Assembly (NCBI GenBank): GCA_009786125.1
Contig: WQTU01000139.1
Coordinates: 8,483-72,482, forward strand
Source: Spirochaetota bacterium
Lineage (GTDB): Bacteria > Spirochaetota > Spirochaetia > CADAEX01
Direction of reading: 5' to 3'
Length of the DNA stretch: 64,000 nucleotides
Within the stretch, counting starts at the first letter, position 1, and every line of letters starts with the position of its first letter. The notes beneath the pieces are model-generated. The model did no database searches and was not told the DNA's origin. It worked only from the letters and a program-made list of their open reading frames with translations. Below, piece by piece: positions 15,070 to 26,933 of this stretch. The position numbers were made by a program, and so were the translations under genes.

Positions 15070-15930
15070 CTAATACCTATAATATAGAACTCCAAATTGC
15101 TGTAATCGACCAATTCTGTCATGCGTGTTGGGGTGAGTTGAATACAGAGCTTTCAAAAATGATTCTTGTGGCTCACTTGTTCCGATGGCATCCAAACCTT
15201 TTGCTAATTCAAATCCATAACCTAACTCAGCGGCATATTTGTCGGCATCATATTCATTTTCCCGCGATGACCACATTAAAAACAGCATACAAAATTTTGT
15301 CCAAAGCCATATAATAGCAGCGAAAAACAATCCTATAATAACAGTACCAAAAGAACGACGTCTAATCCCGGAAATAAGAGAAAAAGCACCTATTATTGTG
15401 TATATTAGTTTTATGATTAGAAGTAATGTAGTTAGAATAAAATTGCCACCCCCGATTAAAAGCTGAATCTCATTATGACGATACGCTAAATGTGCTACTT
15501 CATGTGCTAAAATTCCTTGAATAACATCATCAGGTAGCTGAAAAAGCCCCTCGGTTACACAAATTGTCCTTCGCCCGATTGCGTAAGCGTTTGGTTCGGG
15601 GGAATAAATTACTTTCAAAACTATTTTATTTGTAAGCTTTGGTGTTTTTCTTTTTGCTTTATTGTATACAATTTCCAGCAATGGAATCATTCGAATTCTC
15701 ATGTCAACTCTTGTCATTTTTCTGGCTCCAGCCATTAAGCAGAGAATCCATTCGCCGATTGAAGAAAAAGCAATAAATATTGACAGGATATAAATAATGA
15801 CTATGACATACAGAGAATGAAAACCAATACTAGCGAAAAGTCCAATTATGATTAGCGCATTTAGGATAAAAAAAATAATTGTCCCAATACTTGATTTTTT
15901 AAATATATTTTTTGCTATATCCATACTCAT
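15070..15930 (-). CDS. M48-family (HtpX-like) membrane zinc metalloprotease
   Basis: HEVAH (HExxH) plus a downstream EYDADKYAAELG motif, with N-terminal and internal TM helices. It is the last gene of the operon, 16 nt after the FtsK-like gene. Confidence 0.75.
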   Translation of the reverse strand: MSMDIAKNIFKKSSIGTIIFFILNALIIIGLFASIGFHSLYVIVIIYILSIFIAFSSIGEWILCLMAGARKMTRVDMRIRMIPLLEIVYNKAKRKTPKLTNKIVLKVIYSPEPNAYAIGRRTICVTEGLFQLPDDVIQGILAHEVAHLAYRHNEIQLLIGGGNFILTTLLLIIKLIYTIIGAFSLISGIRRRSFGTVIIGLFFAAIIWLWTKFCMLFLMWSSRENEYDADKYAAELGYGFELAKGLDAIGTSEPQESFLKALYSTHPNTHDRIGRLQQFGVLYYRY

Positions 15931-15945
15931 TGTTACTGCCCTTTT

Positions 15946-18900
15946 CTAATCATGAATGGACAGACTTTTAATATATTTTTTTAATTCAGAATTATCGGGC
16001 ATGATATAAGGTTTATATTGGAAGATGTTTTTTACTCCATCAGAGTAATATACTGTATTATCTTTTAAACCAGCAACAGCAACGCCGTCAATGAGATTGT
16101 CAGCATCGCTGTTGCTCAAAGCAAAAATGATTCTTGCAGGAAATTTGGATAAAATGTTTTCACCATAATACATATTTTCCTTGACGCTTTGATATTCAAG
16201 CGAAGAAGTAATAAAATAAATTCCATAATTGGACCCATCGTCAATAAGCTGCAACAGTTTTTCTGAGATGGACAGGGATGGAGAGCCTGCATTTCCTGAT
16301 ACACCGAAATCAGCAAATTCATTTACGGACTTAGTGGCAATATTATCAATATATTCACTTTCATCTACGGACTCACCTTTAAACATTTTTTTTATAAGAT
16401 CAAGAAATTGCAGGTTCTTTATTACAACCAAAGATTGTTTATTATCCCCGCCCTTTTTTCTCTCTGAGTAAATTGTAAATAAATCGTTGATAATTTGAAT
16501 TATTTCTGTTCTGTTTTTTGCAGTCCTGAAACGTAAACTAAAACCGGTTAAACAATCATAAAATGCAGCCGAGATGCTTTCGCCTATTAAACTCTCTCCA
16601 TCTATACAGTAAACATTAGTATTTGTGTTCAGTAATGCTGAAAACATACAAAGGTTAGTAAGATTTTCAGCCATTTTTTCGTTTGCTCCACAAATTAATA
16701 AATTATGCCTTCTGCGCCGATCAAACTGCATAATAAATGGTGGTGCAACCTTTATGAGTGTCCCCATGTATATTTTTATAACGTTATCAGATGAAGAACC
16801 TGTTTTGCTTTGATTCAAATATTCAACAAGTGAAACCGTTCTGTTTCCTTCAAATATTTGCATCGTAGCTGGATAATCTGCATACTTTTCAGAAATAAGA
16901 GACAAATATTTTATTTGTGCTTTTTTTGAGCAATATGCGGCACGGAATCCTATATTATTTGATTCCATGTATTCCAAATTCATTACGGCTGTACCGATAG
17001 GGCCTTTCATCATTTCAATGATTTTATCATCGTTTCGATTTCCGAATAAATACCGTATATCATCCTCACCGCATTTTAAACCAATACGGATACGCATTTG
17101 TTCAATAATGCCATGCGATAGTGTCAGTTCACTTATAATTTTTGTAGTCTGCGTTGCCATCAAAAGATGAATGCCAAAGGCCCGACCTTCGGTGACGATC
17201 CGCTTAGTCAGTTCAGAGCAATTTCTGGCTACTTTGCGATTTGCAGAATCATTAAAAAGAATTTGAAACTCGTCCATGACAACTAAAATACGTGGCAGAG
17301 GATTTCCTGTGCCTTTTATATAATCAAAAAGGCTTGATTGTCCAGAATTTTTAAACAAGTCTCCACGGCGCAGCATTTCGCTGACTAGATTTTCCAATAT
17401 ACTCTCGCCAAATTCCTGCATGGCATCAAGCGCTAATAATTGAATATGCGGCAAATTGAAAGATTCATAAATCTTAAACTCTGTTCCGCTTTTAAAATCC
17501 ATCAAATACAAATGTAACTCATCTGGGCTATGGGATAACATACCACTCATAATTATTGTGTGCAGTAAAGTTGATTTGCCGGAGCCCGTAGCACCGGCGA
17601 TTATCCCATGATGTGATGAACCTTCTCCCAATATCAAGTCTACAGGGTTTTCGCCGTCGCCAATGCCCACGGTAATAGATAGTCTTTTTGCTGTTGAAGA
17701 AGAAAAAAGCGATGGACTTATAATGTCTTCAAGGGATAGACCTTTTTGTTTTAGGTTGGTAATAGCTTCTATGTATTGATTTATAAAATCGGAAATCCTG
17801 TTCTTTGATAGCTCAGGTGCTACATCAACTTGTAATCCAAAAGGTTGAAGAATATATTTTTTTTCAACATATTCCAACAAAGAACAGTGTTTTTTTATCT
17901 CTTCAAGATGTTCATCGATACTCTCATACTTTGAAAATAAGATATTTGGATTATGGCATATAACTGCGTAAATTCCGCATTTGCTGCCATTATTAAGAAT
18001 ATTTATTAACAACTCTATACTTCGGTTGTCAAAATTGCGGGGAAAATCAAATATAATCAACATAATAATAGGTTCGATACGATTAGGCGTGTTACTGTTG
18101 TATTCAATAATATTGGCAAAGCGATTGCCGAGCTTCTCCTGGATAAACTCGTCAATATATCTGTTTAATTTTTGCAGCGTACCTATCATAGCGTCTTGTG
18201 TGGTATAAATTTGTCCGTCAAAAATATCAGGAAGATTTTGGCGAAAATCCAAAAAAGGCGTTATGCTGTTACCCCGGCGTTCAGCATCAAATACGCAAAA
18301 TTTTATTTTTGAAACCGGAACAGAAGATAGAAAGCTCCACATTAAACCGTGTATAAATTTTATTACATGCTGCTGGACTGCTTCCGGGCAAATAATTAAT
18401 AGACTACTTTTTTCTTTAAGGTTAAAAATTGCCGGCAAAATAAAAGTTTGTGAATTTTGTGTTGTCAATTCAGTTTTTATTCTTGCAATCGTATTGTTAT
18501 CTGCTACTAAATCCAAAGGACAGGATAAATACCCTACTGAGATTTCCGCGGGGAAACTGTCTGTAACTGACGGAACTACACCAAAAGTATTGTTATACCT
18601 GTCAAGAGTATTTTTTATTGCACTTATTGCAAATTGAACTTTATCGGCATTTTCACTGTCTATCAGTTCACAGACTATAGAACCTAATAAAGCAATATTG
18701 CCGTGAAAACTACTGTAAGTGAATAAATAATTTTTGATATATCTTGATAAATCATTTCCTGCAAGGGCTTCATTATATGTTACCCGAAGATTGTAGTAGA
18801 GGAACATATCAACCGCTTGTTGGATGATAATACTGTTTTTTACATGGTAAGGCGGCAAGGCATTTCCTGACTGTACTCTATATACAATTACGGTATAAAC

Positions 18901-20226
18901 ACCAAGATTTTTTCCATTTTCAATAATGTTATTTATCGATGCTACATTTTTGTCTCCCAATGCTTCGGGAGAGTCGAAAACAATTAAAACCTTTATATCT
19001 GGTGTTGCCACTGTATTATTGCAAATACTCAGTTTTTCTAATGTTTCCCTTATTTCCTCATTGGATGTTTTTACTCCTCCATTAAACAGTTCCGGTATTT
19101 TTTTGATAAAATCCATATATGAAGACACATTTTTTCCCTGACCTTCTGAATCTATTATGCTGAAAGTCAAATGTGTAACCGGGGCAAAAGCAATAAAACT
19201 CTGTATTATGGAGCTAACAAGTTGGTTTTTAAGATTGCTATTTACCGTATATTTTACAAGTAAATTCAAATTATCGCTTAAAGAAAATACAAGAGGAAAC
19301 CTAAGTAATTTACTTTGTGAAATAATGGCCGCACATTTATCTTTAATAAGTGAAAACAAAATCTTGGAACTCACAAATAATTCTAATGGATAGTCAATAT
19401 TCCCTAAGACAATAGTATCATCCCATGCACAATAGCTTGATGTTATTCCTGTAAAGTTACTAATATAGCGTTCATTAATTGTTTTTAATGAACCTAACAG
19501 ACTATCAGGTAAAATCTTATCTAACTGTTCACAAATCTCATCAGCCAATATTTCTACGTTGCTTTCATACCTTGATTTTATTTTAGACAGTTCTGCTTGA
19601 TACTTTGATTCTATTTCCTCAGTTTTTTTGGCATGAGCATCTTTCTCAGCTTGTGTTGAATCATTGACCAGTTCAGCTATTGTTTTTTTGATTTCTTCCA
19701 TTAAATTTTCTAGTCTTATTTTCAGAACAATTAAATCTTCATAGTCTTGTTTTCGTTGTTTTGAAAAGGCAAAGTTTATACCATCAAAAAGAGCAGGTAA
19801 TTTCTCTTTTGAATATTTTAATGAAAGTGATTCAAATTGTTTTTTAACATTTTCTAAGGCTAAAAAAATGTCAGGATCATCAATGGTGGTTATTTCGGCT
19901 TTTTTTCCCAGCTCCTCTGTTTTAAGATCTCGCGCTTTAACATAATATTTATCAGCATTTGCCAGAGAAGTATCCAATGCCAATACTTCTTTATATATTT
20001 TTTCAGCATTGTTCTTTAATTCGGCACCTTTTTTTCTAGTAACATTAGCACTACTATCATATTGCCCAGCGGCATTTGACATGAATTGATTATATTGTTC
20101 TTCCAAGCTTTTTTTTGAGTTTTCAAAATTATTCCATAATTGCTGAATTCTCTGATCAGATTGTTCTGCAAAGGAATTAATGTTATTAATGAGTCTCAAA
20201 ACTGTTTGATATGTAATTTTACTCAT
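15946..20226 (-). CDS. Giant FtsK/SpoIIIE-family multi-domain ATPase with N-terminal coiled coil (EssC/EccC-like, no TM or FHA)
   Basis: One intact FtsK-type P-loop domain (HHGIIAGATGSGKSTLLHTII; Walker B RILVVMDEFQ) is flanked by three degenerate FtsK-like domains (VLIVFDSPE, IIMLIIFDFPRNFDN, SLVVIKNLQFLD). About 250 aa of N-terminal coiled coil. No hydrophobic TM segment. Confidence 0.7.
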   Translation of the reverse strand: MSKITYQTVLRLINNINSFAEQSDQRIQQLWNNFENSKKSLEEQYNQFMSNAAGQYDSSANVTRKKGAELKNNAEKIYKEVLALDTSLANADKYYVKARDLKTEELGKKAEITTIDDPDIFLALENVKKQFESLSLKYSKEKLPALFDGINFAFSKQRKQDYEDLIVLKIRLENLMEEIKKTIAELVNDSTQAEKDAHAKKTEEIESKYQAELSKIKSRYESNVEILADEICEQLDKILPDSLLGSLKTINERYISNFTGITSSYCAWDDTIVLGNIDYPLELFVSSKILFSLIKDKCAAIISQSKLLRFPLVFSLSDNLNLLVKYTVNSNLKNQLVSSIIQSFIAFAPVTHLTFSIIDSEGQGKNVSSYMDFIKKIPELFNGGVKTSNEEIRETLEKLSICNNTVATPDIKVLIVFDSPEALGDKNVASINNIIENGKNLGVYTVIVYRVQSGNALPPYHVKNSIIIQQAVDMFLYYNLRVTYNEALAGNDLSRYIKNYLFTYSSFHGNIALLGSIVCELIDSENADKVQFAISAIKNTLDRYNNTFGVVPSVTDSFPAEISVGYLSCPLDLVADNNTIARIKTELTTQNSQTFILPAIFNLKEKSSLLIICPEAVQQHVIKFIHGLMWSFLSSVPVSKIKFCVFDAERRGNSITPFLDFRQNLPDIFDGQIYTTQDAMIGTLQKLNRYIDEFIQEKLGNRFANIIEYNSNTPNRIEPIIMLIIFDFPRNFDNRSIELLINILNNGSKCGIYAVICHNPNILFSKYESIDEHLEEIKKHCSLLEYVEKKYILQPFGLQVDVAPELSKNRISDFINQYIEAITNLKQKGLSLEDIISPSLFSSSTAKRLSITVGIGDGENPVDLILGEGSSHHGIIAGATGSGKSTLLHTIIMSGMLSHSPDELHLYLMDFKSGTEFKIYESFNLPHIQLLALDAMQEFGESILENLVSEMLRRGDLFKNSGQSSLFDYIKGTGNPLPRILVVMDEFQILFNDSANRKVARNCSELTKRIVTEGRAFGIHLLMATQTTKIISELTLSHGIIEQMRIRIGLKCGEDDIRYLFGNRNDDKIIEMMKGPIGTAVMNLEYMESNNIGFRAAYCSKKAQIKYLSLISEKYADYPATMQIFEGNRTVSLVEYLNQSKTGSSSDNVIKIYMGTLIKVAPPFIMQFDRRRRHNLLICGANEKMAENLTNLCMFSALLNTNTNVYCIDGESLIGESISAAFYDCLTGFSLRFRTAKNRTEIIQIINDLFTIYSERKKGGDNKQSLVVIKNLQFLDLIKKMFKGESVDESEYIDNIATKSVNEFADFGVSGNAGSPSLSISEKLLQLIDDGSNYGIYFITSSLEYQSVKENMYYGENILSKFPARIIFALSNSDADNLIDGVAVAGLKDNTVYYSDGVKNIFQYKPYIMPDNSELKKYIKSLSIHD

Positions 20227-20254: not shown

Positions 20255-21379
20255 TTACTTCTCATACTTGCATTTTTTGCCGCATTTTTTTGAAAAACCA
20301 ACTTTTAGTGAAGTCGTAACCTGAAGGGGATAGCTAAATATCTCAACCATTTCGCCGCCGATTTTCGGATTACTTGTATTGCTTACAAGCGTATATTGCG
20401 TAAGATTATTCAATAAACGCGGGATATAACCCTCATTGTTTGCATTAAAAATATCGAGTATCAGCTTGATACCGATTGAAGTAGCAAAATTTATATCGAC
20501 TGATATACCAGGCTCAAACTTTACTCCTTCGGTATTTTCTTGATTTGAGTATACATGATGATTGGCCTCGGCTCTTGACGAAAGGCCGCTGCCATCGCCT
20601 AAAGCGCACTCATAACATGGCAAGCCTTTTCCATACAGGTGATAAAAAATCTCACCAGCAAAAGCCCTTTCCCAAAATCCTATAGAAACAAAAGAGGATT
20701 GATAGTATATGCTGATTCTATTTGTGTACACGTCCGCAATGCGGTTGTCAGCACAGCCGATAAAAACTGTGTTTCCAGCTACACAAAACGAATCCATAGT
20801 TTCTTTTGGCAAATTCTGTACGATGCCTTCAAAAGTAATTACCTCTGCACTTGGATTAATATTAAGAATCTTTCTTTTGAGAGCATATACTTTAAAATCA
20901 CCAACATCTTCTATTCCGCATTGATGGCGGCAAATATTATGATATTCTACTATATCTGCATCAACCAAAATAAAATGCTTTACTCCAGCCCGTGCCAACT
21001 CCAGGGCAACCAGGCTGCCGACAGAGCCGCAGCCTAATATTATTGCTTTTTTTTGGCACATTATATCAGATTCTAATATCCCCTTGTTACGTGAGAATAT
21101 ATTTTGATAGAGGCTGTATATTTCACATTTTATTTTTTTTCCATAACTATAAAAATCTATACCTGCACTTGTAATAACTCCACACAGCTTGTTCTTGTTA
21201 CAATTACTGCCTTTCGGTAACACTTTTCCTAGAAGCTCTCCTTTACTTTCCAGTTCGGGAGGAAATACATTATATATGGCAGATTCTTTGTAATACCTGC
21301 CATATATATTCCTTTCATTTTGAGTACTTGCCTGTATGTCTGATATGAATACCGTCTTTTCCATTTGTGGTTTTTTCAT
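20255..21379 (-). CDS. ThiF/MoeB/E1-like adenylyltransferase (ubiquitin-activating-enzyme-like)
   Basis: Rossmann nucleotide loop KKAIILGCGSVGSLVALELARAGVKHFILVDADIVEYHNICRHQ is present, with downstream CxxC (CYEC) and conserved Cys candidates. Confidence 0.8.
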   Translation of the reverse strand: MKKPQMEKTVFISDIQASTQNERNIYGRYYKESAIYNVFPPELESKGELLGKVLPKGSNCNKNKLCGVITSAGIDFYSYGKKIKCEIYSLYQNIFSRNKGILESDIMCQKKAIILGCGSVGSLVALELARAGVKHFILVDADIVEYHNICRHQCGIEDVGDFKVYALKRKILNINPSAEVITFEGIVQNLPKETMDSFCVAGNTVFIGCADNRIADVYTNRISIYYQSSFVSIGFWERAFAGEIFYHLYGKGLPCYECALGDGSGLSSRAEANHHVYSNQENTEGVKFEPGISVDINFATSIGIKLILDIFNANNEGYIPRLLNNLTQYTLVSNTSNPKIGGEMVEIFSYPLQVTTSLKVGFSKKCGKKCKYEK

Positions 21380-21381
21380 TC

Positions 21382-22368
21382 CTATAAATCCTTGTTTTCA
21401 TTTCCTATACCGAACGCACGCAGTAAACCAGACTTAAATGTGACATCTGCGGGGTTAAAGTCTGTTAATAAATTGGTGAATAGCCCTGGGGTATATAAAT
21501 AGCAATCATCGTCATGAGAAAAAACAATCTGCTTCTTATGTGCAACATATATAAAGTGAATCATTGTAACAATGTTACTTGACCCTTTATGAGATAAGCT
21601 TAAAACTCCCTTGTTTTGTTCAATTTTCAAAGCCAATTTTCGATTTTCAGAAAAATATGTTATATCGTCCAGCAAAGAATCAATTAAAAAATCTCGATAT
21701 TTTTCAGCCTCTTCTGGCTTGTAATCATCTTTAGACAGTGTAGTTTTCTGTAATTTTCCTTTGATGCTAACAAGTAAACGTAAAAAATCTATTTCCGGTT
21801 TGTCAAAGGTTTTATTTCCGGAATATAATTTGTCAGCGTAACTATTTATATATCCAAGTGATTTTTCCGCATTTCTTAACGCAAGTAAATGTTCAGGGAT
21901 TAAGTTATCACCCACTTTATAAGCGATTTTAGTATATTTAAGGGGCCATGCTACATGATATGGCGTAATGCGGAACTTTGGATCAATATTAACCAAAACA
22001 GAAACAGCGCCATTGGCAGACATTTTAGCATAATCAGAGTTAGTTCCATCGTCTGTGGAAGAAAACTCGTCAAAAGAACCCGGATGCCTGTGCCATAGCC
22101 CAATTAAAGTCAATTTTGCTTGATATATCTGTACTAATTTGTTTATTAAATGTTCTGTATATTTTTTATCGTACTCGAAGTATGCAACTTGAAAAATCGC
22201 CTTTGGGCCTGGGTCTATTGCTTCTATGACATACCAATTCCCATTCTCAAAGCAGCCTAAAAATATTCCGCCGGTTTCGGTTTTTATTTTTTCTGAGGTT
22301 TCCGAAATAACCGCCGTGTATGCGCGATTAGAAAAAATCACCTGCATAATTTTCCCCCGTTGATACAT
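21382..22368 (-). CDS. JAB/MPN (JAMM) metallo-isopeptidase-like protein with ~200-aa C-terminal extension
   Basis: Perfect JAMM motif H-x-H-x7-S-x2-D in LIGLWHRHPGSFDEFSSTDD, with an upstream conserved Glu (VIEAID). Confidence 0.8.
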   Translation of the reverse strand: MYQRGKIMQVIFSNRAYTAVISETSEKIKTETGGIFLGCFENGNWYVIEAIDPGPKAIFQVAYFEYDKKYTEHLINKLVQIYQAKLTLIGLWHRHPGSFDEFSSTDDGTNSDYAKMSANGAVSVLVNIDPKFRITPYHVAWPLKYTKIAYKVGDNLIPEHLLALRNAEKSLGYINSYADKLYSGNKTFDKPEIDFLRLLVSIKGKLQKTTLSKDDYKPEEAEKYRDFLIDSLLDDITYFSENRKLALKIEQNKGVLSLSHKGSSNIVTMIHFIYVAHKKQIVFSHDDDCYLYTPGLFTNLLTDFNPADVTFKSGLLRAFGIGNENKDL

Positions 22369-22431: not shown

Positions 22432-22674
22432 TCAAATAAATCGATCTCGATTCGCTAAACAAAAATTGACAAATGCATCTTTTTTAACAACAAGCTTCAC
22501 TGGAAATGGTAGCCCCTGGTAAACTAAAGAGAATATTGCTTCCACTGCTTTGTCATTTTCAGCTGCCGCTAAAGCAGCAGGCCCTACTTTCTCCTGAAAA
22601 ATCTTTTGTATCTGAGGCCAATGCTCCTCAATAGTTTTCTCGATCTGCTTATTCAGCACATTTCCTAAATCCAT
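22432..22674 (-). CDS. Hypothetical small protein (80 aa) between E2-like and JAB genes
   Basis: ORF with tight packing. Mostly helical with a C-terminal beta-like segment. No C-terminal Gly. Confidence 0.35.
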   Translation of the reverse strand: MDLGNVLNKQIEKTIEEHWPQIQKIFQEKVGPAALAAAENDKAVEAIFSLVYQGLPFPVKLVVKKDAFVNFCLANRDRFI

Positions 22675-22692: not shown

Positions 22693-23208
22693 TTAGTACA
22701 CACCTTCTATTGCTACTTCGTCACTTACCTCTCCGTTGATCCACATTTCACACAACATTATCCATTTGCACGCCCAACTTAGAGAGGAGGCGGCTGATGT
22801 AGAACGAGTCTGCGATGCTTTAAAATATTTGGGGTCGGCAGTACATATAAAATACTCTTCGTTACGTCCGAAGTTATCGCGGTAAATATGCGGAAGCCCC
22901 AAGCCCAAACCCTTTTCAGGCTTAATCGGTAATGTTTTCGCTATATCAACGAGACGCGGTTTAACGGGCAAAATTTGAATTGAGCCGCCATACATACCTT
23001 CTTCTGCCTGGGGATGGGTATTTTTATAAATCAACATCAAATCCCAAACCATTCCGCCTTTTCCGGTTGGCTGAACCTTTCCGCGCCAATATAGCCTTCC
23101 CGAACCATCTTCGAGTTTATAGAGCTTAAACGATGGGAAATATTTCCCCATTGCCATCTGTTCAGCCTCTAACAAATCAGGGTCACTCTGATACCAATAA
23201 AATCCCAT
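22693..23208 (-). CDS. UBC/E2-like ubiquitin-conjugating-enzyme-fold protein
   Basis: YWRGKVQPTGKGGMVWDLMLIYKNTHP resembles the E2 W.G.I.GP..TPYEGG.F.L.I.FP..YP layout. LPHIYRDNFGRNEEYFICTAD resembles HPNIY..G.ICLD, with a candidate catalytic Cys. A strong RBS (AAGGAGG) precedes the start. Confidence 0.55.
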   Translation of the reverse strand: MGFYWYQSDPDLLEAEQMAMGKYFPSFKLYKLEDGSGRLYWRGKVQPTGKGGMVWDLMLIYKNTHPQAEEGMYGGSIQILPVKPRLVDIAKTLPIKPEKGLGLGLPHIYRDNFGRNEEYFICTADPKYFKASQTRSTSAASSLSWACKWIMLCEMWINGEVSDEVAIEGVY

Positions 23209-23209
23209 T

Positions 23210-23392
23210 TTAACCCCTCCTTGCCAATTTTCCGTCAGGCACCTGAATGGCTGTGTGCCCCTGTTCTTCTGCTTCGCTTTGAAATTCTACTTCACCGGAA
23301 GGGGTGACAACTACATCTTCTCCTCCGCGCAAGGCTGCTGCTAACGCACGGCGTCTTGCTGCGACAGCATCCTCATCCGCATTATTATTCAT
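23210..23392 (-). CDS. Small low-complexity protein (60 aa) ending in Gly; candidate Pup/Ubl-like modifier
   Basis: MNNNADEDAVAARRRALAAALRGG...GKLARRG-stop sits 1 nt upstream of the E2-like start. It is GC-richer than its surroundings. The C-terminal codons overlap the E2 RBS. Confidence 0.3.
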   Translation of the reverse strand: MNNNADEDAVAARRRALAAALRGGEDVVVTPSGEVEFQSEAEEQGHTAIQVPDGKLARRG

Positions 23393-23449: not shown

Positions 23450-23680
23450 CTAGTTGTTGTTACCAGAAGTAACTATTACATCCGAATTATCATACTTTGC
23501 AGCTATTAAATCATTACGTCTTTTTGTAATAATAGCGGTATTAACTTCTGTTATGCGAATGCAATCAGTGAGAACATCAGAAGTAATACCCTCTTTTTTA
23601 TATGACAAGGAATCCTCTTTGATGTTTCCGATGATTTTTACAAGCAGCGACTTTTTCTTTTTTTTGATAACACCACCCAT
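23450..23680 (-). CDS. Small protein (76 aa), candidate beta-grasp/YukD-like ubiquitin-like protein
   Basis: Ubiquitin-sized. Hydrophobic periodicity is consistent with beta strands (SLLVKIIGNI, VLTDCIRITEV, SDVIVTSG). It ends ..TSGNNN. It lies 12 nt after the upstream gene. Confidence 0.3.
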   Translation of the reverse strand: MGGVIKKKKKSLLVKIIGNIKEDSLSYKKEGITSDVLTDCIRITEVNTAIITKRRNDLIAAKYDNSDVIVTSGNNN

Positions 23681-23692
23681 ACAAACTCTTGG

Positions 23693-24622
23693 TTATGCTG
23701 TCGCTCTTTCTCTAGGTTTTTTATCAAAATTTCTGATAATTTCACCATTAGCAGAAATAGTAACCACACTCTCGCGTAATCCTGCTTGAGCCGCTTTCTC
23801 GCCATTCTTAAGAACAGATTGAGCGTATGTATTGTCAAATAATTCGCTGCCTTGCTCGGCCAGCTTAGCCAAATCAACGCCCTTATTATTTTCCATAGCT
23901 AAGGTATATGCAAAATAGTCTCTCATTCGCCGAAGAGCATTTTCATCGCTTGCAATAATCTCATCACATTTCTTTATCTGCCTAAACCGCTTGATGAAAC
24001 GATATATGGTAATAATTGGACTTACAACAGCTAAAAAAAACCCAGAAATAATTCCCAAAAGAAAACCTCCCCCTATATCGCCATCGCGCCCCTTCGCACC
24101 TCCAAAGAAAGCACCTATCATTAATTTAACTATAGTTCCTAATGAAGCGCCAATGAAAACCAAAAAAATAGTGGCAAACACCATATCCTCGGGGAAATCT
24201 GAACCAGCAGTCAAACCTAAGCCAACAATCAAACCTAAAACAGCACCAACAACCATCCATATACGTTCTTTTTTTACTTGCTTCCTGAAAGCCGTAACAT
24301 TATCAATATTTTCCTGTACTAAAATAGCGGTGCATTTATAACACAAAGCAGTTCCAGCATAGTCACCGATACTTACGCCATATGTATCATAACAATCTCG
24401 ACAAATACCTGTTCCACATCCCCTGCATAATGCTGCTGCTTGTTTTGACGGATGGTGACCACACTCAATACCTGCTTCCAATACACACTCGCGGCATAAA
24501 CCTGCATATTTATTACCAGGTTTGCTAAAAAGATTAACACAATTTCTACAAATCCCCTTTCCGCATCTTTTGCATTGCGCTACTGCTTGTTCGTCTTCAT
24601 GAAAATAACATCCAATTGCCAT
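23693..24622 (-). CDS. Membrane protein with N-terminal tandem zinc-ribbon/B-box-like Cys clusters
   Basis: Cys clusters C-x2-H-x8-C-x2-C-x4-C-x2-C and C-x2-C-x7-C-HH-x9-C-x2-C-x4-C-x2-C are followed by 3-4 Gly-rich TM helices and a ~110-aa C-terminal domain. Confidence 0.6.
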   Translation of the reverse strand: MAIGCYFHEDEQAVAQCKRCGKGICRNCVNLFSKPGNKYAGLCRECVLEAGIECGHHPSKQAAALCRGCGTGICRDCYDTYGVSIGDYAGTALCYKCTAILVQENIDNVTAFRKQVKKERIWMVVGAVLGLIVGLGLTAGSDFPEDMVFATIFLVFIGASLGTIVKLMIGAFFGGAKGRDGDIGGGFLLGIISGFFLAVVSPIITIYRFIKRFRQIKKCDEIIASDENALRRMRDYFAYTLAMENNKGVDLAKLAEQGSELFDNTYAQSVLKNGEKAAQAGLRESVVTISANGEIIRNFDKKPRERATA

Positions 24623-24702: not shown

Positions 24703-24975
24703 CTAAAATTTAACACGGCTGTATGAATCCAGTGATTCTGCCAATCTGTTCAGTTTTGGTTGCGCTGCTTCAAGCGGACCAATAGGCGATTCAATTAAAG
24801 CCGCAATTTTCACCATTAGATTACGGTATTGCTCTCCCTGATAGTCATTCCATTCAGCCGACTGTTGTGATGTCTGTCGGACATCTCTTACGGCTTTTGC
24901 CAGCTCTTTAATGATCGCACCAATATCAGCATTAATTTTACGAATTGCCTCTGAATTTGCTTTGACATTTGACAC
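24703..24975 (-). CDS. WXG100-like small helical-hairpin protein (paralog 1)
   Basis: 90 aa. Central ..AEWNDYQGEQYRNL.. Starts xxVxxxSEAIRK like its paralogs. Confidence 0.45.
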   Translation of the reverse strand: MSNVKANSEAIRKINADIGAIIKELAKAVRDVRQTSQQSAEWNDYQGEQYRNLMVKIAALIESPIGPLEAAQPKLNRLAESLDSYSRVKF

Positions 24976-24989
24976 AATATTCTCCTTTT

Positions 24990-25265
24990 CTATAAGTTGA
25001 CTTTTTCGTATTCTTCAAGCGTTTTGTAGATTTCAACCAGTTTCTCAAGGATCTCAAATAAAGCATCCTTTGGTTCCCGCAATTTATCTGTACACTCTTT
25101 CACGATAATTCCGAGCTGATTATATTTTTGATCTCTCCATCCTTGCCCTGCATCTTTGTAGCTTTGGTCCAACCTTAATGTTGACTTGCTTAAGTCCTGT
25201 ATAACTTCATTGCATATTTTTTCCGCTTTTCTTATAGCTTCTTTTCCGACTGAAACCTGTGCCAT
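24990..25265 (-). CDS. WXG100-like small helical-hairpin protein (paralog 2)
   Basis: 91 aa. Central ..GQGWRDQKYNQL.. N-terminal KEAIRKAEKI parallels paralog 1. Confidence 0.45.
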   Translation of the reverse strand: MAQVSVGKEAIRKAEKICNEVIQDLSKSTLRLDQSYKDAGQGWRDQKYNQLGIIVKECTDKLREPKDALFEILEKLVEIYKTLEEYEKVNL

Positions 25266-25286: not shown

Positions 25287-26036
25287 CTAGAAATTCTCAC
25301 TTAAATACTTATCAACTGCAGCAATACATTTCTCAATATTGCCTACATTTTGTTCCGTGCCTGAAACTGCCTGTGTTTCAAATGATTTTGAAGCAGATAA
25401 CATTGTGTTTATATTGTCATTCATTTTTGCAAGGGAAGCATTCATTCTTTCCTGCTTATTTCTCAATCTGTCTAAAAACCTTTCAGTTGTGCGAAGTTCA
25501 TCTTCCTTTTTCGCTTTTTCGGCTTGTATCACATGTACTTTTTGTTGTAATTGTAAACCGCACTCTTTTAATTTGAATAATTCATTTTCTGAACTTCTGA
25601 TTTCAGACTCTGTTTGATATAATTGATTCCTTCTATCATCGATTTGCTTTTGGATTTTCTCTTTTACCTCGCCTTCTGCTCTTGCAGCGGCTTGTTCCAT
25701 TTCCGAAATTTGCTTCTTAATGTGCATAGCGTTTGTCTGATTAGCCGTTAAATCGTTTTGTGCTGATACCAGTTTTTGTTCTGTCGATTTTATTTCGTTA
25801 TTCATTTGATTTATTGTATCGGCAAGTCTATTTATTTCTGCTTTGTACTGATTAATTCTATTTGTTGTCTCCTCAATTTTTTGCTTGATTTTCTGCATTT
25901 CTAAGTCTGCGGATTTGGAAACAACAGATATTTGTTGCCCTATTCTTGTTGAAAAGCCCGAAATATCAATATAGTAATCATTAAGTGCGGCTTTTACTTT
26001 TGTAAGAGCGTCTTTTGAAACGCTAATTTCGGACAT
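25287..26036 (-). CDS. Coiled-coil protein (249 aa) with N-terminal WXG/LXG-like helical region
   Basis: Extended heptad-like Q/E/K-rich sequence. The N-terminus MSEISVSKDALTKVKAALNDYY resembles its small neighbours. Confidence 0.4.
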   Translation of the reverse strand: MSEISVSKDALTKVKAALNDYYIDISGFSTRIGQQISVVSKSADLEMQKIKQKIEETTNRINQYKAEINRLADTINQMNNEIKSTEQKLVSAQNDLTANQTNAMHIKKQISEMEQAAARAEGEVKEKIQKQIDDRRNQLYQTESEIRSSENELFKLKECGLQLQQKVHVIQAEKAKKEDELRTTERFLDRLRNKQERMNASLAKMNDNINTMLSASKSFETQAVSGTEQNVGNIEKCIAAVDKYLSENF

Positions 26037-26038
26037 AG

Positions 26039-26275
26039 TTAAACTTCCTCTGCCGCTATGGCAAAAAATTTATCTATTCCGGAACAAGCTCTTTCGCCGC
26101 TCTCTATAACGGTTTTTGATGTTTTTGCCAACTCGCCAATCCGTGCCTGCAGCGAAGCATAATTGCCATCGTTCCATATATCCCCAACTCTGTTGATTTT
26201 TTCACTTACTTTTCCGGTTGACAGTTTGAAAGCATCAAGCTCCTTTTTTATAGCTGAAGCGTGGTTAATTACCAT
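26039..26275 (-). CDS. WXG100-like small helical-hairpin protein (paralog 3)
   Basis: 78 aa. Central ..GDIWNDGNYASLQARIGEL.. (W-N-D-G). Confidence 0.45.
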   Translation of the reverse strand: MVINHASAIKKELDAFKLSTGKVSEKINRVGDIWNDGNYASLQARIGELAKTSKTVIESGERACSGIDKFFAIAAEEV

Positions 26276-26582: not shown

Positions 26583-26933
26583 ATGCTAGATCCGGCTATT
26601 CCTACTGTGAATGAAAGAATCCGACAGGTTCGTTCTGTTTTAGGGCTATCTCAGGTTAAATTTTCTTCAATTATAGCTCTGTCTAGCGGTTATATAGCTG
26701 GAGTAGAGACAGGTCGAATTTCTGTAAATAGCAGAATGATAAAACTGATATGTTCCTCCTTTAGGGTAAATGAATCTTGGCTGAGACATGGTGAAGGAGA
26801 GATGTTTTCAGAAGATATTATTGAAGATAAGCAGTTCAATAACCTGGTTAATACAGTACGGGCTCTGCCTCCAAAATATCAAGAGTTTCTATTCGAGGTT
26901 TTGGATATGCTGGTAAAACTGAAGGATAAATAA
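26583..26933 (+). CDS. XRE/Cro-C1-type HTH transcriptional regulator, divergent from the operon
   Basis: HTH ERIRQVRSVLGLSQVKFSSIIALSSGYIAGVETGRIS is present. A 102-bp shared intergenic region separates it from the 26480 operon start. Confidence 0.7.
   Translation: MLDPAIPTVNERIRQVRSVLGLSQVKFSSIIALSSGYIAGVETGRISVNSRMIKLICSSFRVNESWLRHGEGEMFSEDIIEDKQFNNLVNTVRALPPKYQEFLFEVLDMLVKLKDK

Follow-up and report, generated by a model that had tools for sequence, protein, structure and literature searches.

What would bring a membrane protein with zinc fingers of the B-box class into a bacterial operon that encodes an E1-like enzyme, an E2-like protein and a JAB peptidase together with relatives of type VII secretion components? 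The question is raised by a 309-amino-acid (aa) membrane protein encoded on the minus strand, at 23693..24622, of a stretch of 64,000 nucleotides from a Spirochaetota bacterium (contig WQTU01000139.1, positions 8,483 to 72,482), hereafter the window; coordinates refer to the window unless another locus is named. The open reading frame (ORF) begins with an ATG that is preceded, 8 nt upstream, by a GGAGG Shine-Dalgarno sequence, and its product, referred to below as the target, comprises tandem B-box-like zinc modules, a transmembrane (TM) segment and a C-terminal helical domain. Along its whole length, the target is identical (100%) to an NCBI "hypothetical protein" (P0001) of the metagenome-assembled genome (MAG) "Spirochaetes bacterium". 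An earlier interpretation made from the letters alone (the sequence-only reading) had proposed a membrane-anchored E3-like or substrate-recruiting factor. Our analyses lead us to suggest, tentatively, that the target is a cytoplasm-facing, membrane-anchored adaptor, and a core subunit of a system joining ubiquitin-like conjugation and type VII-like modules; a catalytic E3 role is conceivable. Read conservatively, the target is a member of an unannotated protein family with a new conserved cytoplasmic domain. This family forms 127 clusters (50% identity) at E<=1e-30 among 1.84 billion representative proteins, and 83 homologues of the target made up the set for family alignment and analysis. Comparison of the target with NCBIfam and PADLOC matched nothing meaningful.

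The N-terminal part of the target contains 16 Cys/His ligands within residues 1-97, while the remaining 212 residues have a single Cys (C219). Every residue listed by the sequence-only reading for its two Cys/His clusters is present, but the grouping has to be changed, since C43-x2-C46 ends the first module and C94-x2-C97, which ends the second, had been overlooked. Module 1 (residues 3-49; 24476..24616, minus strand) thus reads C5-x2-H8-x8-C17-x2-C20-x4-C25-x2-C28-x14-C43-x2-C46 (residues 5-46), and module 2 (residues 52-100; 24323..24469, minus strand) reads C54-x2-H57-x8-C66-x2-C69-x4-C74-x2-C77-x16-C94-x2-C97 (residues 54-97); H56, an additional His adjoining the ligand H57, is not counted among the 16. 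Because all eight ligand columns (8/8) are invariant across 39 non-identical modules taken from the 83 homologues, the pattern is not a product of chance. Module 2 is the family-wide core module. Module 1 is an accessory of the closest relatives, seen in the family alignment only in P0002, P0003, P0005, P0006 and P0055 (gap fraction 0.83); other family members have DZR-type zinc ribbons, Sel1 repeats or Pro-rich linkers at its place.

B-box type 2 fingers follow the consensus C-x2-H-x7-9-C-x2-C-x4-C-x2-C-x3-6-H-x2-4-H. Ligands 1-6 of the target's modules are in register with positions 4-30 of the Pfam model zf-B_box (PF00643) and with the B-box2 of TRIM28, and the last ligand pair, a C-x2-C that comes after 14-16 residues, departs from the type 2 ending. 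The zf-B_box model is matched at E<=0.01 by 55 of the 83 homologues (best 4.2e-7), and three family members carry a precomputed PF00643 assignment; the ANCHR-like B-box is matched by 27/83 in a member-by-member Pfam scan and weakly (ANCHR-like_BBOX, 17.5 bits) by residues 5-31 of the target itself. When the module profile was compared with all PDB sequences, TRIM28/KAP1 B-box2 (2yvr) came out on top (E 0.0027, again with ligands 1-6 in register), followed by MID1, more TRIM28 chains, the RING-containing chains of TRIM25/31/21/32, and PML. We modelled the whole protein by AlphaFold2 with the 83-sequence alignment (pLDDT 90, pTM 0.83) and the N-terminal 102 residues separately (pLDDT 81.7). Either model shows each module as a beta-hairpin with a subsequent helix, ligand pairs 1 and 2 being located on turns, and pairs 3 and 4 at the N-termini of helices; this supports, at the level of prediction, a cross-braced binuclear treble clef rather than two sequential zinc ribbons. 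Zinc binding and B-box-like, cross-braced folding are predicted for both modules.

The modules are a variant of a known fold. Their first pair (C-x2-H with an 8-residue spacer) is B-box2-like, and pairs 2-4 plus the trailing helix are FYVE-like. The description "B-box-like binuclear treble clef" is supported, and "RING-like" holds at the superfold level only. RING domains follow the consensus C-x2-C-x9-39-C-x1-3-H-x2-3-C/H-x2-C-x4-48-C-x2-C, and the ligand spacing of the target differs from it; no RING-family Pfam model matches the target, and 2 of the 83 members weakly match the RING-type zf-UDP. By eye, the usual E2-contact signature of RING domains is absent as well (no Ile/Leu within pair 1, no Pro within pair 4), which is suggestive only. 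Membership in the FYVE family was considered and rejected, given that the PI3P-binding motifs WxxD, R(R/K)HHCR and RVC are absent and that the Pfam FYVE model scores 16.8 bits against a cut-off of 27.8.

The target is membrane-anchored, and its glycine-rich TM helices are followed by a soluble C-terminal domain, both as read originally. Hydropathy and the model place a poorly conserved membrane segment at residues 119-207 (24002..24268, minus strand), in which three hydrophobic Gly-rich stretches (approximately 119-143, 146-174 and 181-210) with GxxxG-type motifs can be discerned. The model accommodates four membrane helices, namely the end of helix 95-137, helices 144-159 and 161-177, and the start of helix 185-245. 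The last CxxC of module 2 (C94/C97) caps the continuous helix 95-137 that runs into TM1, and the 60-residue helix 185-245 exits the membrane and starts the C-terminal helical domain (residues 208-300; 23723..24001, minus strand), which is modelled with a pLDDT of 93-98. Family-wide, Lys and Arg together number 4.3 in the flank ahead of TM1 and 4.0 in the flank behind the last TM helix, compared with 0.09 and 0.8 in the two loops, and in reduced homologues only two hydrophobic segments are apparent by eye. Given the positive-inside rule, the four helices of the model and the apparent two segments of the reduced homologues, we infer that the B-boxes, and thus the zinc module whose sidedness had been in question, and the C-terminal domain both face the cytoplasm.

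Mean identity to the query is 31% in the TM region, compared with 56% in B-box 2 and 60% in the C-terminal domain, where D226, M233, Y236, Y239, T240, N264, G274, E275, I289, N292, G293 and E294 are near-invariant. Owing to this difference, the membrane segment looks mainly like an anchor or an oligomerisation element, and the two cytoplasmic domains look like functional surfaces. The conserved C-terminal domain matched no family in Pfam, NCBIfam or PADLOC, fold searches with the whole model returned generic helical bundles only, and hhalign comparison of the domain with the WXG families of the operon described below found them unrelated (probability 2.4% or less). In the same three databases, the TM and C-terminal parts showed no similarity to EssA, EssB/YukC, EsaA/YueB or EccB/D/E.

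The gene context of the target is highly conserved. In the window, the target belongs to a 14-gene minus-strand operon (26480 to 15070) that runs in the order 71-aa protein, WXG-like protein, 249-aa coiled-coil protein, two further WXG-like proteins, target, 76-aa polybasic protein, 60-aa protein and E2-like protein, and continues with an 80-aa protein, a Prok-JAB peptidase, a ThiF/E1-like enzyme, a 1426-aa FtsK-family ATPase and an M48 peptidase. The loci collected with the target as seed are from Phycisphaerales, Fibrobacteria, Defluviitaleaceae, Lachnospiraceae (among them the cultured strain MGB1, locus L012, QXXL01000093.1), Oscillospiraceae and other Clostridia, and every one with sufficient flanks keeps the order WXG - coiled coil - WXG - WXG - B-box protein - modifier - E2 - JAB - E1 - ATPase; where the downstream flank extends to the E2 position, E2 is present in 16/16. 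An independently seeded set of 80 metagenome loci, collected with E2 and including some contigs labelled human gut, shows the reverse relationship: the target is present in 49 of the 52 loci with at least 1.8 kb upstream. The co-occurrence with E2 genes in other genomes, on which the proposed E3-like role had depended, is thus observed from both sides. In the same E2-seeded set the ATPase was found in 42/42 loci with enough DNA downstream of E2, JAB in 50/50, E1 in 49/50, and WXG-like genes in 41-42 of the 48 loci with at least 3 kb upstream. Among related loci, an M48 gene lies downstream of the ATPase in 34/37.

Across loci, E2, E1 and the 60-aa protein are 61-100% identical (E2 66-89% across phyla), the target 30-60% and the ATPase 26-72%. 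The system, of 11-14 genes, is horizontally mobile across at least four phyla, and its hosts range from human-gut Lachnospiraceae to the two-membrane Spirochaetes, Fibrobacteria and Phycisphaerales. One IMG/VR locus without the target (L103, 7063-9768) encodes a large serine recombinase of 493 aa and has phage-like genes, all immediately upstream of the modifier gene; this looks like a mobile-element insertion at the usual position of the B-box and WXG genes. A scan of IMG/VR with the family pattern found no confirmed relative of the target, yet an E2-seeded IMG/VR contig (L104) carries the target gene; tblastn of the target against 72,556 plasmids gave 0 matches.

The loci that contain only one of the two modules are of particular value for the interpretation. 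L050 (8618-12281) is a reduced variant in which Sel1, TM and zinc-ribbon proteins precede modifier, E2, JAB, E1 and M48, and which is devoid of ATPase, WXG genes and target. The ATPase also has distant relatives, located in L102 and on plasmids of Caballeronia and Helicobacter, that occur together with WXG proteins and toxins but with neither E1/E2/JAB nor the target. Of these ATPase/WXG loci without E1/E2, L100 and L101 encode no membrane protein and L102 encodes an unrelated Sel1-TM protein. The target was therefore seen only where the conjugation and ATPase/WXG modules coexist, the single-module loci being L050 on one side and L100-L102 on the other.

The conjugation module begins directly downstream of the target and its small neighbour. 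The 60-aa protein (23210..23392, minus strand) ends in ...PDGKLA-RRG, and in all of its 70 distinct homologues the motif Px[GA]KLA either ends the protein or is trailed by 3-4 variable residues (in two, the tail is longer). In the Bil systems, the JAB enzyme exposes the conserved C-terminal Gly of the ubiquitin-like protein (Ubl) (PMC10557695). Based on this C-terminal motif, we regard the family of approximately 55 aa (60 aa in the window) as a candidate short conjugatable modifier, whose reactive end would be either the Ala or the Gly before it; a typical beta-grasp Ubl is much longer. In a Fibrobacteria MAG (L006, 11054-11734), a protein of this type is fused in frame to E2. The E2-like protein (22693..23208, minus strand) matches PADLOC E2 models (E about 1e-8), and its orthologues carry a weak precomputed PF26395 E2-CBASS assignment, while the Prok-JAB peptidase (21382-22368, minus strand) and the ThiF/E1-like enzyme (20255-21379, minus strand) are matched in Pfam, NCBIfam and PADLOC alike.

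The second module resembles type VII secretion systems (T7SS). The 1426-aa ATPase (15946..20226, minus strand; Pfam FtsK_SpoIIIE at residues 870-1027) scores best with the NCBIfam models of T7SS EccCa (119.5 bits) and EssC (91.5), compared with 30.8 for FtsK, all of them under the curated cut-offs; it has a single intact Walker A/B pair (Walker A at 878, Walker B at 980), and neither a convincing TM helix nor an FHA domain was found in it. Upstream of the target lie three WXG100-like small helical proteins (26039-26275, 24990-25265 and 24703-24975, minus strand) with a weak Pfam WXG100 match, mutually related at hhalign probabilities of 86-98%, and the LXG-like 249-aa coiled-coil protein (25287-26036, minus strand); the order of these genes is conserved. 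The ATPase gene is followed in most loci by a gene whose product has a WXG-like N-terminus and, after a Gly/Ser linker, a variable C-terminal domain; next comes a small immunity-like ORF (L003, 19880-20689; L011, 18522-19592; L013, 13405-14730; L019, 15622-16554; and after the ATPase gene in L010, L012, L014 and L017). The C-terminal domains include Gln_amidase (a Gln deamidase), Peptidase_C39_2 and ADPrib_exo_Tox (an ADP-ribosyltransferase, 94 bits), and others contain a HELGH motif and match no Pfam toxin or peptidase family. A WXG N-terminus with linker, variable domain and immunity gene is how the polymorphic toxins that type VII systems export are built; export by the present system is presumed. 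The operon copy in the window has no toxin gene. Genes for VWA proteins, PP2C phosphatases and Ser/Thr kinases recur beside such WXG/ATPase systems (L001, 837-5726; L003, 2159-7391; L100, 6555-7289 and 14013-16538), which hints at a shared regulatory or conflict-system layer; the E1/E2-less Caballeronia plasmid locus L100 additionally encodes a CARF protein.

The last gene of the operon encodes an M48 (HtpX-like) membrane zinc peptidase (15070..15930, minus strand; Pfam Peptidase_M48, 83 bits), and the target is the only other membrane protein kept across the operon. The M48 gene of L005 (5260-7365) is placed between the polybasic small protein and the modifier gene, and its product has N-terminal Sel1 repeats and double zinc ribbons; DZR zinc ribbons are common to this M48 and the B-box protein of the same locus, and Sel1 repeats are found on B-box proteins elsewhere (P0058).

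Taken together, these observations are what lead us to favour, with due reserve, the adaptor. One module would consist of the modifier of approximately 55 aa, E2, JAB and E1, and the other of the WXG100-like proteins, the LXG-like coiled coil, the soluble EssC-like ATPase and the WXG-fused polymorphic toxins, with M48 alongside. The B-box and the C-terminal domain would serve as docking surfaces that keep the conjugation enzymes, or modifier-tagged cargo, beside the ATPase and its cargo at the inner membrane, and the target would be E3-like only in a scaffolding, substrate-recruiting sense. A coupling role is suggested by the absence of the target from L050 and from L100, L101 and L102, and by the presence of two conserved cytoplasmic domains on a variable anchor, encoded between cargo-like genes and the modifier and E2 genes; the low identity of the TM region, set against that of B-box 2 and the C-terminal domain, argues for an anchor rather than a channel. 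The fixed gene order and the presence of the target in nearly all E2-seeded loci point to a core component, all the more so as its absence in L103 coincides with the recombinase/phage insertion. Since the ATPase has no TM helix and the target is the sole conserved membrane protein besides M48, it is the target that may provide the link to the membrane, and the fusion of a WXG-like N-terminus to Gln_amidase, Peptidase_C39_2 or ADPrib_exo_Tox after the ATPase gene points to an export module. The accretion of extra B-boxes, DZR zinc ribbons and Sel1 repeats, both on the N-terminus of the target and on the M48 peptidase, likewise speaks for an adaptor.

Several observations weigh against the adaptor reading. 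The zf-B_box score of the target itself (20.6 bits) is under the Pfam gathering cut-off of 24.1, and a count of one TM helix per hydrophobic peak, three in all, is possible too and would place the C-terminal domain on the outer side of the membrane. The confinement of the target to loci with both modules is judged from a single locus with only the conjugation module and three distant ones with only the ATPase/WXG module; since a search with the N-terminal 860 residues of the ATPase retrieved close relatives and only one distant one, the census of E1/E2-less systems is thin. Export by such a system has never been demonstrated, and several of the hosts have two membranes. The prokaryotic B-boxes surveyed by Burroughs, Iyer and Aravind in 2011 reportedly work with membrane peptidases and not with ubiquitin-like systems. 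Moreover, the characterised bacterial E1/E2/JAB systems (Bil and CBASS) conjugate without an E3 or an adaptor (PMC10557695).

The sequence-only reading is borne out in part: it correctly identified the class of fold, the anchoring in the membrane and the association with E2, and was incomplete in leaving unused the type VII-like (WXG and EssC-like) and M48 context, in the light of which the target could instead be a dock for the ATPase or a partner of the peptidase. As a true E3 ligase, the target would bind the charged E2~modifier through its B-box in a RING-like manner and activate transfer to a membrane substrate (WXG cargo, a toxin, the ATPase or the target itself). The binuclear cross-brace seen in the model belongs to the RING/B-box class, the gene is located one or two genes upstream of modifier and E2 and accompanies them in 49/52 loci, the B-box is among the best-conserved parts of the protein, as expected for contact with an E2 that is itself highly conserved (66-89%), and ATPase/WXG systems without E1/E2 have no target. 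We nonetheless consider a genuine ligase unlikely, because the ligand spacing is non-RING, with no hydrophobic residue in pair 1 and no Pro in pair 4 on inspection, because the E1/E2 pairs of Bil and CBASS manage conjugation without an E3 (PMC10557695), and because the E1/E2/JAB/M48 variant L050 does without the target. A more elaborate version, in which the target is a membrane receptor or E3, E1 and E2 attach the modifier of approximately 50 aa, at the site of the target, to WXG-type toxin cargo or to the export machinery, JAB strips the tag while the ATPase threads the cargo, and M48 clears or processes it ("tag-for-export"), strikes us as improbable; if true, it would be a bacterial counterpart of the ubiquitin-receptor/Rpn11 logic, put to use for secretion instead of degradation.

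The target might also be a structural membrane subunit of a type VII-like translocon that functions independently of the conjugation module, its TM helices oligomerising with the help of TRIM-like self-association of the B-boxes, and its C-terminal domain docking the hexameric EssC-like ATPase or WXG cargo. This would provide a membrane partner for an ATPase that has no TM helix of its own and scores highest with the EccCa and EssC models, in an operon whose only other conserved membrane protein is M48, and it would suit the presence of WXG-toxin cargo with immunity-like genes, the joint absence of target, ATPase and WXG genes in L050, and the GxxxG-type motifs of the Gly-rich helices. Such a subunit remains doubtful to us, given that conservation is lowest, and the number of helices variable, in the TM region, which is unlike a dedicated channel, and that ATPase/WXG systems without E1/E2 dispense with a protein of this kind (none in L100 and L101, the unrelated Sel1-TM protein in L102); moreover, Pfam and NCBIfam reveal no similarity to EssA, EssB, EsaA or EccB/D/E, and hhalign finds no relationship between the C-terminal domain and the WXG families (<=2.4%). 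Least probable, in our view, is a substrate adaptor or regulator of the M48 peptidase, whose B-box would bind a peptide tail and pass it on to the protease, which in turn would, for example, cut the Gly/Ser linker of the WXG-toxins or clear stalled cargo. Such a partnership is consistent with the pairing of prokaryotic B-boxes with membrane-associated peptidases that Burroughs et al. reportedly described in 2011, with the M48 gene downstream of the ATPase in 34/37 loci, and with L005, where M48 is encoded two genes downstream of the B-box gene, with one small gene between, and shares the DZR ribbons with its product (the Sel1 repeats on other B-box proteins, such as P0058, being of the same kind); it is at odds with the retention of M48 without a B-box protein in L050, with three of 24 loci in which no M48 was found in the approximately 3-5 kb available downstream of the ATPase, and with the usual distance of approximately 10 kb between the two genes, which occupy opposite ends of the operon. 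We retain the adaptor as our working interpretation.

Compared with known systems, the target and its operon combine familiar parts in an unfamiliar way. With the TRIM B-box type 2 fingers (TRIM28/KAP1 B-box2, 2yvr; TRIM5 B-box2/coiled-coil, 5eiu), the target shares the six-ligand register, the predicted binuclear treble clef and a long helix directly after it. It differs in its fourth pair, a C-x2-C placed 14-16 residues on at the start of a helix, instead of the H-x2-4-H of TRIM 3-6 residues on; it also has no RING or SPRY domain, is bacterial, continues its trailing helix into a TM segment and scores below the Pfam threshold. The likeness to FYVE and to non-lipid-binding FYVE-related fingers (RIM2, rabphilin-3A, Slp4) is confined to ligand spacing and fold, as pair 1 of the target is a C-x2-H with an 8-residue spacer and the lipid motifs are absent. 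Like the prokaryotic B-box partners of peptidases reported in the 2011 survey, the target is a bacterial B-box membrane protein with M48 in its operon, but it is locked into an E1/E2/JAB operon and has an unclassified C-terminal domain. Prokaryotic RING-type E3 components that belong to E1/E2/JAB operons have been reported (Burroughs 2011; for FtsH-ternary systems, Kaur et al. 2020, PMC7159879), and the likeness lies in a binuclear treble-clef protein encoded beside E1, E2, JAB and a modifier; here, however, that protein is non-RING by profile and spacing and membrane-anchored, the modifier of approximately 55 aa is not a recognisable beta-grasp Ubl, and a WXG/EssC-like module is added.

"Mobile versions of T7SS" with solo WXG proteins and a YueA-like ATPase that has three FtsK/HerA domains, one of them active, have been described (Zhang et al. 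2012, PMC3482391, Table 1 footnote 6). These, and the T7SSb-j of Gram-positives (PMC11217815), have in common with our operon the WXG100-like proteins, a single-P-loop EssC-like ATPase, WXG-toxins and sometimes VWA/PP2C/kinase neighbours. Unlike in those systems, we recognised here no YukD/EsaB-like Ubl and no EssA/EssB/EsaA-like protein, the ATPase is devoid of TM helices and an FHA domain, and a full E1/E2/JAB module is present in addition, as is a B-box membrane protein. Type II BilABCD and type II CBASS (Cap2/Cap3) share the broad E1, E2 and JAB families, and the modifier motif with its short variable tail is Bil-like; those systems have no membrane protein, B-box or ATPase/WXG genes, and their modifier is a beta-grasp Ubl or a CD-NTase ending in Gly, whereas here it ends in ...GKLA. 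In the literature that we searched, which did not include the most relevant paper, we came across no operon in which E1/E2/JAB and a short modifier occur together with WXG proteins, an EssC-like ATPase, M48 and a B-box membrane protein.

A few further features of the window's operon deserve mention. The best promoter-like site of the region is directly upstream of the operon (26528-26499, minus strand), and beside it a divergent gene encodes an Xre-type helix-turn-helix (HTH) protein (26583-26933, plus strand; Pfam HTH_19 at 28 bits, under the cut-off), perhaps a local regulator. Directly after the target gene, the 76-aa polybasic protein (23450-23680, minus strand; N-terminus MGGVIKKKKKS...) matches no family; tblastn found homologues mainly in the loci closest to the window, plus L005 and L006, and none in Lachnospiraceae-type loci. 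The Phycisphaerales locus L001 has a similar 79-aa ORF (MSSVIKKKRQS...) after its target gene that tblastn did not pick up. For the 80-aa helical ORF between E2 and JAB (22432-22674, minus strand), a counterpart was found in none of approximately 100 related loci, and it looks like a window-specific insertion.

B-box fingers are a hallmark of the TRIM ubiquitin ligases of eukaryotes. Here, a B-box-like finger is tethered to a bacterial membrane and is genetically locked to a full E1/E2/JAB cascade and to a type VII-like toxin-export ATPase. If the target indeed links the two modules, it would provide the first instance in bacteria of ubiquitin-like conjugation being coupled to protein export. 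Type VII systems, to our knowledge, invariably contain parts with a ubiquitin fold (YukD/EsaB, the EccD domain), none of which is ever conjugated, a long-standing puzzle on which such a linking role, if true, would bear. The presence of the system in human-gut metagenomes and in one cultured Lachnospiraceae strain makes it testable.

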